IMG/VR virus record: IMGVR_UViG_3300045988_160359
Location: 117,570-181,569 of that record
DNA: 64,000 nucleotides
Source: a virus
Direction: 5' to 3' (one strand)
Position 1 is the stretch's first letter. Each line of letters starts with the position of its first letter. This document shows, piece by piece, positions 50,923 through 59,208 of this stretch. The notes below the pieces were generated by a model, which was given only the letters and a program-made list of their open reading frames with translations, had not been told where the DNA came from and did no database searches. Position numbers and translations under genes: made by a program.

Positions 50923-51836
50923 ATATTGGTTAAGGAAGAAATTTCTCTCTTCCTTAACTTTCTATATATATTATATTATATTTTTTAAAAAAAATCAAAT
51001 TTTAGATTTTTAATTGATTAAATAAATTTTTATCTATAAAATATAATTCTGCAAGTGTTTTATCAAATTCATTTTGTTGTTTATTACTTAAATTCCATTT
51101 TACTGTTTCTGCTGATTTACAATATTTACAAATATTTTTAGGGGTATTAGCAAAAATTTCTAATTTTTCTAAAGTAAGAGTATTTAGATCTAAAAAATCT
51201 GAAGAAGTAATTGGTATAGATTGATTAAAATACTAATTATAATTATTAATATAAGCAGCAAACGGGCAATAATAAATTTTATAATTTTTAAGAGTAAAAT
51301 AATATTTATTATCCCTATAACATTTTAAAAAATTATTTATATCTTCATTTCCTTTTGGATTAATTGTTGTTTTATCAAAAGTAGTCCGAATATGATAATT
51401 TAAAATATGATTATTATTAATCAAATTATCATATTTAACAGAAGGATATTTTGATACAGTAATATAAACATTAGAATTTAATTGATTATTAAAACTACTC
51501 CATTGTTTCTCTGTCCAGGAATTAATAATTTTTCCATTTGTTAAAATTGAAATCATCGTATTCGGGAAAATAGACTAAGCAATTAAAATTAATTTTTTGA
51601 TATTGGGGTGAAGAAAAGGCTCTCCTCCTAATATAATTAAATGTGATAATTTATTATTTAATTTTTTACTTAATAATTGTAATTGATCTGTCCATAATTT
51701 TTCAGATATAAACCAAGGAGTAGCAATTGATGAAAAATGAGAGCAATTCATACAATTTAAATCACAATGGTCAACAATATGAATTGATATAGCAAATCCA
51801 TCATAAACACTTTTATACTATTCTAACTAAATTAAG

Positions 51837-53615
51837 TTAGCAGGACTTTTGGACTCCATAACTTTCAACGAACTTTCTATATGAATCAGATATTAAAGTT
51901 TCTCTAAAAGGATTAAATAAATTTTTATTTAAAATATAAGAAGCATTAAAAGCTTCTTTAATATCTTCATTTGTAAGAGTTATATCATAATTCATAAATA
52001 TCTTTTTAATTTCATCCAAAGTATATTTATTTTTAATATATTTTTGTAATAATCTTTGCTTAGAAAAATTAGATGTATACTATTGTATTGCTTTAATTTC
52101 TGAATCATTAAAATTAGTTAAATCTCCAAAATTATTAAATAATTTTAAAATGGCTTCATTAATATGAGTGGGTGTGGCTAGTGGACGATATAAGAAAAAT
52201 ATATTACCATTTAAAACATTAAATAAATAAGTCTAAGCACTTTTATTGTAATATATCTACTGTAAAAAGAAATCAATTAATTCTTCATTAGTATGACTTT
52301 CAAGATTATTAAATAATTCTTTAGTTTGTTTAATAATTTCTATTGATGGCAATAAATCCCAATCCATATTACTGTATGTTTTAGGATAAATAGTAGAAAT
52401 TTCTTTAAATCCATCTAATTCTTCGACAAAGCCCCATATAGCACTCATTTCTGGAATTAACGATGAATCTAAAAAATAACAATGTAAATTATTTTTATTT
52501 AATAAATCTTTATAATAATTATTAATTTCCTGATTATTATAAATACCACGAAGAAATACATCTTTATTATATTCTTCTTTAATAATAGTATTTAAAAATA
52601 CTTCTTCAGGAAAAGTCTAAGCATATGAAAAATTCCATCTAAAATTAAAACAAATTTTATCCCAAGAATCTTCTCGTCCAGGAAATTGAAGGCCTTTATT
52701 TAAATCATCTAATTTACCTTGATTTTGATAAGTTTCTGTAAGCACACGCTCTAAAGCAATATCAATTACTGGGAAGCTGCCGCAATTTACAACTGTTATA
52801 TTATTCATTTTATTAAATATAATAGATAAAATAACAGGATACCCAAATGTATAAGATAAATCCAAAATTTTAATATTATTACCATTTGCTTTTATTTTTG
52901 CAATAATATTCTCTAATAAAGGATTTTGCAAATTATTAAGATTTAGTTCATAAAACTATAAAGAATCGTGAAATTCCATAGTCTAATCAAAACAATAATG
53001 CTCAAAAATTTCTGATAAACCTTGGTTAATCGCTTCTTCAATAGTATTTCCAGCTGCCATTCCACCGCTGCCAATATATTGAATAATACGTGGATCGATA
53101 TATTTTGTGTCAACGCAATTAAATCCTTTAAACGGAGCTCCAATTATTTTGTCGACTTTTGGAATATGTAAATAATTCTCTAAATCAAAAGATCGATTAT
53201 TAAAAAATGCCGCTTGGACTTTCTAACAAGTACGACTGTTTTTAACCATTTCATTCAAAGACATTATTTTCTCATCAGGAAATAAATAATAGCCATTATT
53301 TTTTAAATTATATTCACAAAGCTTATCAAAAAAAGGAATAGAAGTCCAAAATGACATTTTATTACAAAAACGTTCATACATTTCTGCATAACCAGAAGCA
53401 TATGAAAACATTTCCGTAACACCTTTCCCGCAAGAAGTCCCAATAAATTCATTATTATAATAAAGTTTTAAACAACAGCTCCAAGTATCTGCTTCGCTTT
53501 TACGCACATCTCTAATACGAATTTCGAATCCACGCTTTTCAAAGAAATTTTTTAATAAAGCGACAGTTTCTTCTGGTGTCCGATCTTTATATTTTGTATT
53601 ATAATTATAATTCAC
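51837..53615 (-). CDS. YcaO-domain protein (RiPP cyclodehydratase/thioamidation-type ATP-dependent enzyme), about 592 aa, containing at least 7 in-frame TAGs (53223, 52983, 52956, 52617, 52257, 52233, 52080)
   Basis: N-terminus DRTPEETVALLKNFFEKRGFEI and ATP-binding motif SCGKGVTEMFSYASGYAEMYERF. A second G-rich motif GSGGMAAGNTIEEAINQGLSEIFEHY follows. Track ORFs 53223-53615, 52617-52931, 52257-52448 and 51837-52019 are all in one frame, interrupted only by TAG. TAA stop at 51837. Confidence 0.65.
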
Positions 53616-54499
53616 GATAATTCTCCTAATAACAAATTTAAAGCCTCATCTTTATATTCTGGTTTAATTAAATAATAGATATAATTTAACGCAAGTTCAA
53701 TAGAATTTAAAGTGCGTCCTTCTAATTTAAATTGCTCAAATCCCATTGGCGCGTAAATTTCAAAAATATCTGTAGGAGATAAATTATTAGTATATTCGCG
53801 AGTTATAGGAGAACAAGTAGAACCTGAGATAAGACAATTACACAGATTCATATTCTTACCATAATTTAAGTAGAAATCACTATTTGCACGATAATGATTC
53901 TTACGCTCAGGACATCCAGGAGGACAGATAGCATTACATAAAATTTCACATTTTTTTTTCTATTCTACTGGAATAGATTTTAATAATTTTAAATTTCTAT
54001 TTAAATTATAATCTAAACAAATTAAATAATAATCATCTTTTTGTAATTCTTGTAGTAATTCAGCCGGTTTGGTTAAACATTTAGTAGTAGAAGAAACTAA
54101 TCGATAGTTAGGGTATTGCGATAAAATATAATCTTTAAAATTATCATCACTTACAGTTATCTAATTTATATTATTTTCGCATAACTCTAAAATCATATTA
54201 CCAAATCGATCATAATAATCTTTTGGGGTTAAATGAGTATTAGTAAGAATTAAACGAATAGGTATATTATATTGATAATTATATACCTATATCATTTCTT
54301 CTAATGTCTCTCTTGAGCATTGAGTATCTGAATTAATAAATATTCTACCGCCATCAAAAATACAAAAATATGGAATATCATAAAAACATTCAAGATTAAT
54401 ATTGTTATAAAAGAAATGAGAATAATTTGTTTTTAACATCAATAACCTTTTATTCAAAGCATAATGATGATAAAATCCAGGCAAATTAAAATTAATCAT
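53612..54499 (-). CDS. Cys-rich hypothetical protein (TAG-recoded; extent approximate)
   Basis: Continuous frame through TAGs includes ...KCEILCNAICPPGCPERKNHYRANSDFYLNYGKNMNLCNCLISGSTCSPITREYTNN.... Track ORFs 54287-54499 and 53612-53851 share the frame. Confidence 0.35.
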
Positions 54500-55638
54500 A
54501 TATCCAAACCTCGTGATAATACTTCAAACTAATATTCTGGTTTTATAAAATATTGTGTATAAAATTCTAATACCGTTGTTGGCTTAGTTAATATACGTAT
54601 GAAATCTATTTTATAATGAGTAAATCCTAATTTCATATACTTATCTTGAATTTCTTCTAAGGGAAGAATAGGAAAATTAAAACGTCTTACACAATTACCT
54701 ATAGGACTTTTGCAAGAAAATGATAATTGAGCCAAGTCTTCTTGTTGCTAGCATTTAGTCTAACAAGAACAAGTGGCAGGACATTGACCATTTACAATTA
54801 ATTCTATTTTTTCTCTATGATTTAAATTAGATAAAAAGTCAATATCATTTAATTTATTATTAGGAATTTCAATTAAATTAAATTTATTAAAACTATTGAT
54901 CTAGTTAATCAAATCAGAAGTGTATTCTTGAAATAATGCAGCTCTATGTGAAAAAATATATTTGTAATTAATATTCTTATTTTCTAAAAATTCAAGTAAT
55001 TTTAAATCAGCAATTTCAATAAAATTACACCCATTTTCAAAAATATCTAATATCACACGATTTAAATTATCATAATAATCTGTTTGAGTTAATAATGTAT
55101 TAGTGCAATTTAATCTAATCGGTTTCTATGTATTATTAAAATATTGTATATAATCATTATATAATAAAGTTTTATAATTGTTATAACAATTATTATAGCC
55201 ACCATTCCAAGAATTAAAAGGGAAATTGCCGTGATAAGAAGCAATAATTACAGGAACTTTAAATTTTTCAGGACTTTTTTTCGCCAAATCAGCAAAATAA
55301 TTATTTATTTTTAAGTTTAAATAAAAATCAGGTAAAGAAAAATATAACATTAAATAATTCTTCCTTTAAAATAAAAAGTGTCGGGATCATATTTTAAAAA
55401 TAATCTATAAGAAAGGATGTTTAAAATTCCTAAATCTTTCTTATTTAATTGATAGTATCCATTTTTTTGCTATTGAGTATTTATATACTCATTAAGCTAT
55501 TCTTCTATATAATTATTTAAAATTATTTTTATATCTTCACAATCAGATTGTAAAACATTCTAAATAATGTATAACAACATATATCTATCTTCATAATTAT
55601 TTAAATTTAATGAAGATAATTTATCCTTTAATATTTCT

Positions 55639-58582: not shown

Positions 58583-58701
58583 ATAATTAAAAAAAATCCT
58601 TTTTTATTAAGATTATAATAAGAGCAAATAGATTGTCCAGTGTAATATGTGGATTCAAATTGTTTATTATTACTATCTGAACTAAAAAATATTGCTTTCA
58701 T
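58579..58701 (-). CDS. Candidate RiPP precursor peptide B (40 aa), translationally coupled to the rSAM gene
   Basis: Translates as MKAIFFSSDSNNKQFESTYYTGQSICSYYNLNKKGFFLII*. Its core is paralogous to the C-terminus of the 58735-59188 protein. Confidence 0.4.
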   Translation of the reverse strand: MKAIFFSSDSNNKQFESTYYTGQSICSYYNLNKKGFFLII

Positions 58702-58734
58702 AACATCAATTTTGTTTTTAATTACGTAATAGTA

Positions 58735-59188
58735 TTAAGGGTTATAAGAACAAGTAGATTGTCCAGTATAATATGTGAATCCAAATTGTCTATTATTACT
58801 ATCTGAACCAAAAGAAGAGTTAGAGCTAAAACTACTACTATTAGAAGAAAAGCCAAAACTATTTCCTGGTCTAAAAGCATCTTTTGCTTGAATCTAATCA
58901 ATGGTGCCTGAAATCTAATTTAATAGAGTAGGCTAAATTAATGTTCCTGGAGCAGGAACAGTAAGACTAAAATTAGACAATGTACTTGATAAAAAAGTAT
59001 TACTTTTCATAGCATCAATATTTGTTTTCAATTGTGCAATAGTATTAGTTGTTGTAATACTTGTACCCGCTCCTCCCGCCGGTGTCGGCGTAATAGTAGC
59101 AAAACTAAATTTAGTTCTTGCTGTATTTAAATTCGTAAAAAGGGTCTAAATATCTGACCAAGCGGCTTGCGACCCTGTAGATAAAGCC
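58735..59188 (-). CDS. Candidate RiPP precursor A: Ser/Thr/Gly-rich protein (about 150 aa, 4 in-frame TAGs) ending in core-like ...SDSNNRQFGFTYYTGQSTCSYNP
   Basis: Translates as MALSTGSQAAWSDI[TAG]TLFTNLNTARTKFSFATITPTPAGGAGTSITTTN...FGSDSNNRQFGFTYYTGQSTCSYNP*. The C-terminal 25 aa are repeated in peptide B. Confidence 0.4.
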
Positions 59189-59208
59189 ATATTTTCCCTC
59201 CTTACAAG

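Follow-up and report, generated by a model that had tools for sequence, protein, structure and literature searches.

The DNA analyzed here, called the window below, is a stretch of 64,000 nt from a virus (IMG/VR record IMGVR_UViG_3300045988_160359, positions 117,570 to 181,569), and all coordinates refer to this stretch. We examined a cluster of genes on its minus strand that encodes a YcaO protein, radical S-adenosylmethionine (rSAM) enzymes and a candidate protein substrate, and that an earlier note, made from the sequence alone, had described as a heavily TAG-recoded locus resembling those for peptides made on the ribosome and altered after translation (RiPPs). The window is AT-rich (34% GC) with a negative GC skew in all 2-kb bins, and nearly all of its long open reading frames (ORFs) lie on the minus strand. 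Once TAG is read through, this strand carries a continuous run of genes from 51002 to 60085, of which the seven overlapping genes in 51002-58582 are intact only with TAG as a sense codon. The genes of this run and the amber-suppressor tRNA of the window are the following.

59654-60085, minus strand: p143, a protein of 143 aa, 1 in-frame TAG
59209-59637, minus strand: p142, a protein of 142 aa, no in-frame TAG
58735-59190, minus strand: the candidate substrate protein, 151 aa, 4 in-frame TAGs
58579-58701, minus strand: a mini-ORF of 40 aa, no in-frame TAG
57056-58582, minus strand: rSAM1, 508 aa, 5 in-frame TAGs
55639-57072, minus strand: rSAM2, with the full SPASM motif, 477 aa, 6 in-frame TAGs
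55350-55649, minus strand: the 99-aa helper, 3 in-frame TAGs
54496-55350, minus strand: U32a, 284 aa, 5 in-frame TAGs
53612-54499, minus strand: U32b, 295 aa, 3 in-frame TAGs
51837-53615, minus strand: YcaO, 592 aa, 7 in-frame TAGs
51002-51859, minus strand: rSAM3, 285 aa, 4 in-frame TAGs
39667-39740, minus strand: tRNA-CUA, the amber suppressor

From rSAM1 through rSAM3, neighboring genes overlap by 1-23 nt each. The YcaO gene is start/stop-overlapped with both U32b and rSAM3, its GTG start codon overlapping the U32b stop. A terminator-like hairpin lies just upstream of p143 (60210-60181, minus strand), together with the best promoter-like site of the region (60195-60167, minus strand; TTGACT-17-TATAAT with a TG). 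As called by consensus scans alone, sites of the promoter and terminator kind flank the unit and 60210-60167 is the probable start of transcription, and the most economical reading is that the minus strand from ~60.17 to 51.0 kb forms one operon. The GC content of 50000-60000 is 0.22-0.27, compared with 0.29-0.43 in the rest of the window; the substrate gene (0.34) is the exception.

A YcaO profile scan of IMG/VR identified 20 related loci on viral contigs of 8.9-240 kb (L numbers below denote related loci), 16 of them on contigs of 124-240 kb, and in most loci the cluster adjoins a tRNA array. Viral contigs scanned with a single YcaO sequence gave no match, and Megablast of 28-50 kb of the window against GenBank phages returned tRNA matches only. 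Bacterial genome collections yielded four loci only. One is on a 35%-GC contig binned with Faecalibacterium and carries the cassette; two are lone YcaOs in metagenome-assembled genomes of Ruminococcaceae and Oscillospiraceae (isoelectric point [pI] 6.3-6.6) and are uninformative. The sample names of the relatives include pig gut, rumen and cecum. Other window genes encode GyrB, an AAA_24 ATPase and a CHAP/PG_binding_1/Amidase_2/SH3 endolysin, a multi-domain type usual in phages of Gram-positive hosts. The hosts of these phages are probably Clostridia.

From the substrate gene through rSAM3, 37 of the 2,691 codons are in-frame TAGs (1 per 73), compared with about 1 per 287 elsewhere in the window, which bears out the raised TAG density noticed earlier. 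The earlier note had allowed that overlooked TAA or TGA stops might split these genes; the same codons include none. Every enzyme has homologues in related contigs, all collinear and full length, some TAG-rich and some without TAG. Moreover, independent gene calling on a 201-kb contig, 96% identical, yields the same gene sizes (143, 142, 150, 508, 477, 99, 284, 295, 592 and 285 aa). Because the non-recoded relatives encode collinear full-length proteins, the comparison indicates that the read-through is real.

To what amino acid TAG corresponds can be seen from the alignments. Over 191 columns with TAG in at least one homologue, Gln is enriched 4.2-fold and other residues by at most 1.7-fold, and in the repetitive tails of the relatives TAG swaps with CAA/CAG at equivalent repeat positions. 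These patterns indicate that TAG means Gln, decoded by the phage tRNA-CUA, which belongs to a set of 28 tRNA genes at 36237-50922 on the minus strand. Several relatives carry a tRNA-CUA of 88-91 nt with a long variable arm (L011, 9874-9962; L013, 9877-9965; L022, 9877-9964; L019, 8839-8929), located at most 50 nt from the YcaO start in L011, L013 and L022 and ~1 kb upstream of it in L019. TAG still aligns with Gln in these relatives; decoding as another residue was considered for them and rejected, as TAG, CAA and CAG alternate in their repeats and Gln is 6-fold enriched there. In a pig-gut relative (L032, 3059-4579; L033, 3113-4255), TGA is found exactly at the invariant Trp262 of rSAM2, which implies TGA=Trp coding. 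Thus, the phage family includes members with TAG=Gln, members apparently with TGA=Trp and members without in-frame TAG in the cluster genes. Since the last carry the same genes, the system is not tied to recoding.

Three further observations concern the tRNA arrays. No tRNA-Gln with a UUG or CUG anticodon is present among the 28 tRNAs of the window, and a gene for a sodium:dicarboxylate-symporter-like protein lies inside the array (44295-45485). In L019, a tmRNA gene (8243-8591; tag peptide AKPYRLAA) is located within the tRNA array, just upstream of tRNA-CUA and YcaO.

The candidate substrate is the 151-aa protein at 58735-59190, whose gene has a strong Shine-Dalgarno sequence, AAGGAGGG. The earlier note had placed tandem candidate precursor peptides here; what lies there is no short Cys-rich peptide but this protein, whose N-domain is folded and whose disordered tail is rich in aromatic residues and Ser, followed by a 40-aa partial duplicate of its 3′ end, probably the second precursor of that note. 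Residues 1-104 constitute a conserved three-helix N-domain, and residues 105-151 the tail, composed of 30% Ser, 15% Phe, 13% Asn and 11% Gly, with a single Cys and no His. In the AlphaFold model, the helices span residues 11-27, 48-63 and 87-102 with a predicted local distance difference test (pLDDT) score of 86-92, while the tail stays below 50; the model has no specific structural neighbor. Pfam was searched with all operon products, and NCBIfam additionally with the enzymes, the 99-aa helper and the substrate protein, at E ≤ 0.01. The N-domain matched no family in either, the NHLP and Nif11 leader families included. In close relatives the head is 94-98% identical and indels fall in the repeat part, and the C-terminal end RQFGFTYYTGQSTC is common to four full-length close relatives.

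The genomic context connects this protein with the rSAM enzymes. In every rSAM1-bearing locus, the gene directly upstream encodes a conserved N-terminal region of ~105 aa followed by a long low-complexity tail. HMM searches of all fetched loci showed that the N-domain gene, rSAM1 and rSAM2 are contiguous in 23/23 related loci that hold the substrate gene and the sequence downstream, and the positions of the YcaO and U32-like genes vary among the same loci. The tails fall into two types. Type-A tails, to which that of the window belongs, contain 13-26% Phe/Tyr/Trp amid Ser, Asn, Gly, Asp and Arg. Type-B tails have few aromatic residues and are rich in Asn, Ser, Thr and Gly, His and/or Cys being usually present as well, and they carry a 'KCRN' boundary and a conserved 'TYIDIxNA' end. 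The latter accompany a clearly more divergent rSAM1/rSAM2 pair, so that the two tail types track two rSAM clades, and L004 harbors both types of module, with a separate substrate and rSAM pair in either. The YcaO gene overlaps or abuts the substrate gene in type-B loci. We link the enzymes to this substrate because the synteny survives rearrangement, the tails co-vary with the rSAM clades and the genes are translationally coupled.

An exhaustive search with the N-domain only returned 106 clusters at 50% identity, and the domain is N-terminal in 104 of the 106 listed. The proteins are 56-394 aa in length, with one outlier of 1,809 aa. Repeats of aromatic residues, Ser, Asn, Gly and Arg, such as GNSSFGNSGWGFGNSGFGN, SYNSSYNTSYRTSY and DNGFRSSDFA, were present in 28 of 29 sequences read, and many repeat units terminate in [FYH]-Arg. 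One N-domain/repeat-tail protein (P0253; L032, 507-1628) has a Hint/intein-type domain (CLIPGT...VHN) at its C terminus, weakly matching Pfam Intein_splicing, a sign that the tail in that relative may undergo C-terminal autoprocessing or ligation.

The 40-aa ORF, MKAIFFSSDSNNKQFESTYYTGQSICSYYNLNKKGFFLII, is rich in Ser, Thr, Tyr and Cys and duplicates ~70 nt of the substrate 3′ end in frame; its TGA and the rSAM1 ATG overlap. L029 has this ORF as well. In L030, an unrelated GC-rich segment of ~110 nt (about 5775-5890, corresponding to 58583-58734 of the window) replaces the duplicate. The ORF may be either a second, leaderless core or a duplication scar.

The two rSAM enzymes proposed in the earlier note were both recovered with their CX3CX2C motifs, and a third, rSAM3, had been overlooked; the motif is invariant in all three rSAM families. 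Against Pfam PF04055 (cut-off 29.5 bits), rSAM3 scored 30.8, and rSAM1 and rSAM2 scored 21.7 and 22.3. rSAM1 contains C29-X3-C33-X2-C36 (CNLNCSYC), WGQEPTL and three further invariant C-terminal Cys residues (C329, C347 and C457), and rSAM2 contains C45-X3-C49-X2-C52 (CNQKCQYC) and seven C-terminal Cys residues (C329, C347, C393-X2-C396-X5-C402-X3-C406 and C425) that are invariant in 17/17 sequences. The suggested SPASM-like tail thus holds for rSAM2, which has the exact CX2CX5CX3C motif, and not for rSAM1, which is not a full SPASM protein because it has only three conserved extra Cys residues. The sole PDB match of rSAM2 is the SPASM region of the SCIFF maturase CteB (5wgg, E 2.5e-4), and its score in the TIGR04085 SPASM model is 19.6 against a cut-off of 27; rSAM1 has no PDB sequence match. 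The two enzymes are related to each other in the core only (hhalign probability 96%). The weak NCBIfam matches of rSAM2 are nearly all peptide maturases, the best weak matches of the rSAM enzymes being PapB, SCIFF, nif11, CbpB, YhhB and HxsC, and a PHROGs search gave generic rSAM matches and one family of unknown function, nothing else. A small protein of similar size to the 99-aa helper follows rSAM2 in every module examined; the helper is helical with a conserved LLYIIYxN motif, and its profile had no match to PqqD/RRE (RiPP recognition element) or any other family.

rSAM3 contains C32-X3-C36-X2-C39 and the invariant residues C198, C244 and C247. Its best named match is HxsC (E 5e-10; 38.7 against a cut-off of 267.9), and it also shows weak similarity to QueE, NrdG and viperin-type cores, PADLOC returning a generic viperin core only. 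In L005-L009, rSAM3 is fused to a family-2 glycosyltransferase.

rSAM2 resembles the rSAM/SPASM maturases, such as the thioether-forming CteB/SCIFF and PapB enzymes and the triceptide synthases YhhB and HaaB, in its CX3CX2C motif and seven-Cys SPASM region. As in those systems, the gene adjoins a gene-encoded substrate, here with repeated aromatic-X-X or His/Cys-rich units of the kind that is cross-linked there (PMC11499958). In contrast, the operon enzymes fall far below the family cut-offs (PapB 34 against 340; YhhB 22 against 445), the rSAMs always occur as two different enzymes together, the system is virus-encoded, and the substrates, of 144-446 aa in the fetched loci, possess a folded head of ~105 aa that belongs to neither NHLP nor Nif11. 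The triceptide class does not apply: the YhhB model reached only 21.8 against 445, over the rSAM core only, though aromatic-X-X units are abundant. The sactipeptide and ranthipeptide models likewise scored far below their cut-offs. The His-Xaa-Ser (Hxs) system shares the HxsC match of rSAM3, the pairing of two rSAMs and, in the type-B tails of relatives, an abundance of H-x-S/S-H-S units. It differs in the low HxsC score and in the tail of the window, which lacks His, and no match to HxsA, HxsB or HxsD was found among the enzymes, the 99-aa helper and the substrate protein.

The ~592-aa YcaO protein with seven TAGs was read correctly at first: the gene at 51837-53615 runs from its GTG start without TAA or TGA, and the product scored 94.8 bits in Pfam PF02624 (cut-off 25.7) and 89 bits in TIGR00702 (cut-off 75.65). 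Eight residues (E84, E87, R88, E200, E208, E211, R296 and E300) are invariant in 30 homologues, and on these grounds membership in the YcaO superfamily is clear. In the protein, a YcaO ATP-binding domain at the N terminus is followed by a C-terminal domain of ~290 aa, an architecture resembling that of E. coli YcaO, which is also the closest solved relative of the family profile (PDB 4q84, E 2.6e-42, collinear from residue 20). Among the more specific models, the SagD/thiazole-oxazole-modified microcin (TOMM) model TIGR03604 gave 37.3 against 219, so that the protein does not qualify as a SagD-type cyclodehydratase. Archaeal YcaO proteins thioamidate a Gly of McrA, and the corresponding model TIGR03266 gave 43.8 against 365. 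No operon product matched TfuA in the Pfam scans, and there is neither an E1-like/Ocin-ThiF partner nor an FMN dehydrogenase family among the eleven operon products; a ThiF-like fragment occurs in the relatives L001/L002 only. By these comparisons, the YcaO is not of the TOMM or TfuA type.

E. coli YcaO thioamidates Met82 of the ribosomal protein uL16 without TfuA by recognizing protein tertiary structure, and this thioamide adjoins the hydroxylated Arg81 at the peptidyl-transferase center (PMC13063428). The phage enzyme is like it in the collinear N-terminal YcaO domain, the length of ~590 aa, the large C-terminal domain and the lack of a TfuA or E1-like partner, and E. coli YcaO sets a precedent for a protein, not a leader peptide, as the target. 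The phage enzyme differs in its score of 100.7 against 700 in NF040716, the equivalog for uL16 thioamidation, in its pI of 5.4 (phage family median 5.3), as opposed to the ~4.4 that marks the uL16 clade, and in belonging to a fast-diverging family with only ~30% mutual identity. Its operon also contains rSAM and U32-like genes and that of a hypervariable substrate. Non-acidic members of the E. coli YcaO group have been found in RiPP-like contexts (PMC13063428). The phage YcaO may form thioamides independently of TfuA (PMC13063428).

In place of the Cys-rich small proteins noted earlier beside the enzymes, the operon encodes, besides the 99-aa helical protein, two TIM-barrel paralogues, U32a and U32b (284 and 295 aa), of which U32a is divergent. 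C192, C196 and C222 are invariant in both, and residue 202 is His in U32b, replaced by Cys in U32a. A homologue of U32b, the 96%-identical P0121, was modeled in place of the Gln-substituted window sequence, and AlphaFold predicted a TIM barrel with a pLDDT of 93. Foldseek of this model against the PDB found generic TIM barrels only, and the family profile had no match among PDB sequences. PF01136 gave weak matches in 4/16 family members, none at the Pfam cut-off. We call these proteins U32-like, as putative distant relatives of the peptidase-U32 family, and C192/C196/H202/C222 is a possible Fe-S site. The four-Cys motif of U32 proteins binds 4Fe-4S in UbiU/UbiV (PMC6747719), and characterized members hydroxylate ubiquinone precursors with prephenate as the oxygen donor (PMC10990095, PMC6747719). 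The likeness to O2-independent U32 hydroxylases (the UbiU-UbiV heterodimer, TrhP and RlhA) lies in the weak PF01136 matches, the two adjacent paralogues (as in UbiU/UbiV), the conserved Cys cluster and the anaerobic gut setting (PMC6747719, PMC10990095). The difference lies in the Cys/His spacing and in the lack of any member at the Pfam cut-off, and Fe-S binding is putative. Other U32 proteins hydroxylate rRNA and tRNA bases, and no member is known to have a peptide as its target.

Taken together, we lean with moderate confidence toward the reading that the operon is a late-expressed, oxygen-independent phage pathway maturing the 151-aa protein at 58735-59190, RiPP-like and belonging to no known class. 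'RiPP-like' is a fair functional label because a gene-encoded substrate lies directly upstream, and to this extent the earlier suggestion stands; its comparison with thiopeptides, thioamitides and sactipeptides finds no support in the YcaO models or in partner genes. None of the named classes that we compared (TOMM, TfuA-type, sactipeptide/ranthipeptide, triceptide, Hxs and NHLP/Nif11) fits. The three-helix N-domain would act as a docking, leader-like module, and rSAM1 and rSAM2 with the 99-aa helper would perform radical chemistry on the repeated aromatic-X-X/Ser/Asn/Arg units of the tail, most likely forming C-C, C-O or C-S cross-links as other SPASM peptide maturases do. The E. coli-type YcaO would use ATP to activate backbone amides of the same substrate, with a thioamide as the most likely outcome, the U32-like pair may be an Fe-S heterodimer that possibly carries out O2-independent hydroxylation, and rSAM3, fused to a glycosyltransferase in relatives, may add further tailoring. 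The chemistry assigned here follows from the superfamilies, and the role of the product is likewise inferred: the product might be set free as a peptide at lysis, form a cross-linked material inside the cell or attached to the virion, or serve in another way. Late expression is probable because translation depends on amber suppression. The dense TAGs would delay translation until suppression is established, so that the product appears late in infection; recoded stops have been reported to be biased toward late genes (bioRxiv 10.1101/2021.08.26.457843).

Several points weigh against this reading. The substrate is a candidate assigned from synteny and co-variation. No RRE, leader peptidase or exporter was found among the operon products in the Pfam and NCBIfam scans; an M28 peptidase is encoded upstream, but beyond the terminator-like site. 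With their 100-340 aa and conserved C-terminal motifs, the tails resemble functional regions of a protein more than they do classical cores. rSAM1 and rSAM2 fall below the Pfam Radical_SAM cut-off, and U32 membership is weak, the spacing CX3CX5(H/C)X19C departing from the U32 pattern CX6CX15CX3/4C (PMC6747719). Finally, YcaO could have a separate target, because L019 and L023 carry YcaO without the cassette within 10 kb.

The resemblance of the tails to aromatic 'sticker-spacer' low-complexity regions raises an alternative in which the N-domain/repeat-tail protein has a function of its own in the phage, for example in adhesion, scaffolding, condensate formation or decoration of the virion, by way of FG- or [GS]Y[GS]-like stickers. 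It would then be a mere syntenic neighbor of enzymes that make or modify another compound, for instance a small molecule, cofactor or nucleic-acid base. The conservation of the C-terminal motifs (TYIDIxNA; RQFGFTYYTGQSTC) points to a protein that functions intact, the operon lacks a leader protease, and the weak similarity of rSAM3 to QueE, NrdG and viperin-type cores would suit such targets. However, the unbroken substrate-rSAM1-rSAM2 adjacency and the co-variation of tails with rSAM clades are hard to explain without a functional link, the better matches of rSAM1/rSAM2 are peptide maturases, and enzymes with a SPASM domain typically act on peptides and proteins (PMC10114670); we consider this alternative unlikely, if deserving of attention. 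Somewhat less probable is that some or all of the enzymes, especially the U32-like proteins, YcaO and rSAM3, modify the translation machinery of the infected cell (uL16, S12, rRNA or tRNA). The activity of E. coli YcaO on uL16-Met82 without TfuA (PMC13063428), the known U32 hydroxylases, the position of the cluster beside the tRNA array in most loci, tRNA-CUA upstream of YcaO in L011, L013, L019 and L022 and the lone YcaOs of L019 and L023 all speak for it. Yet the YcaO of the window overlaps U32b and rSAM3 in the same operon as the substrate cassette, type-B YcaO genes abut or overlap the substrate gene, and relatives without in-frame TAG in the cluster carry the same genes, so that the system is not tied to recoding. 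The NF040716 score is low, the pI is ~5.3 and not the ~4.4 of the uL16 clade, and mutual identities of only ~30% are unlike those of enzymes with a fixed substrate (PMC13063428). A still less probable variant would make the U32-like proteins, YcaO and rSAM3 a phage tool for editing the host translation apparatus under anoxia, for example by O2-independent re-creation of the adjoining hydroxyl and thioamide marks of uL16, deployed with the tRNA array and the amber suppressor; the cassette would then be a separate, undescribed protein-maturation module.

A conventional small-peptide RiPP pathway for an azol(in)e, thioamitide or sactipeptide, with the 40-aa ORF or another small ORF as its precursor, is improbable. 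YcaO with rSAM/SPASM enzymes is a hallmark of RiPPs, and the Ser/Thr/Tyr/Cys-rich ORF does abut rSAM1, its stop overlapping the rSAM1 start, but it partly duplicates the 151-aa gene, the close relative L030 does not have it, and inspection of more distant loci turned up no small ORF like it. Scores in the models for SagD, McrA-type YcaO, sactipeptides and ranthipeptides stay far under the cut-offs, an E1-like partner, TfuA and a dehydrogenase are lacking among the operon products, and the tail has a single Cys. That the genes are decaying pseudogenes or an assembly artifact, with TAGs as real stops, is hardly credible: every gene is indeed fragmented under the standard code, but TAA and TGA are absent from 2,691 codons, dozens of phage contigs carry full-length collinear homologues with and without TAG, no catalytic residue varies and a suppressor tRNA is present.

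The genes flanking the enzymes are partly conserved as well. In the type-A relatives examined and in the type-B locus L010, the substrate gene is preceded by one for a protein of ~118-148 aa (mostly 134-148) whose N-terminal strand pattern resembles that of p143; p143 itself matched nothing in Pfam or PADLOC. p142 is the same kind of small protein, and the two have no detectable sequence similarity to each other or, for p142, to any family searched. Upstream of the operon, an M28-family peptidase with C-terminal zinc-ribbon motifs (62095-63138, minus strand) is followed by a 522-aa zinc-ribbon-rich protein (60533-62101, minus strand). This pair also precedes the cluster in L015, L016 and L018, and L005 and L007-L009 show the 522-aa homologue with the C-terminal end of a peptidase homologue at the locus edge. 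The M28 peptidase was considered as the leader peptidase and dropped, because the terminator-like site stands between this gene pair and the operon. Farther along the minus strand, an 830-aa protein (30753-33245) with major-vault-protein domains (MVP_shoulder, 74.5 bits; Vault_3, 34 bits) adjoins a 529-aa DUF2828/DUF7788 protein (33413-35002), and by these domains the two look like a vault-like pair in a phage. The pair is also found near the cluster in L004, and in L019 a DUF2828-like gene lies directly after YcaO.

Beyond the earlier note, our analysis adds a third rSAM and the U32-like pair, and it shows that the operon is conserved across a family of 124-240 kb phages. In the literature searchable, itself incomplete, we came across neither a phage YcaO/rSAM/U32 cluster nor this precursor family, and the word 'radical' does not occur in the recoding preprint (10.1101/2021.08.26.457843). 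Within that literature, the combination of enzymes, the type of substrate and the viral setting of a RiPP-like pathway are unprecedented. If our reading is correct, a widespread family of 124-240 kb gut phages spends ~9 kb on anaerobic multi-enzyme chemistry for its own protein, in what would be the first viral YcaO pathway, within the literature searchable, and the first occurrence of U32-type proteins in a peptide/protein context. The precursors resemble long-leader RiPPs (proteusins with NHLP leaders) and the multi-core precursors of fungal dikaritins in having a long conserved N-terminal part and a variable C-terminal part, with repeat units often ended by Arg, which could delimit cores; they differ in lacking a protease and in the conservation of C-terminal motifs. 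They would represent a new family with a three-helix head and an aromatic/Ser/Asn/Gly repeat tail, comprising 106 clusters at 50% identity, whose chemistry would be unpredictable from known classes. The naturally co-evolving enzyme-substrate pairs of types A and B would offer a means of finding new radical-SAM reactions, and the operon would provide a concrete case for asking what stop-codon recoding gates late in infection.

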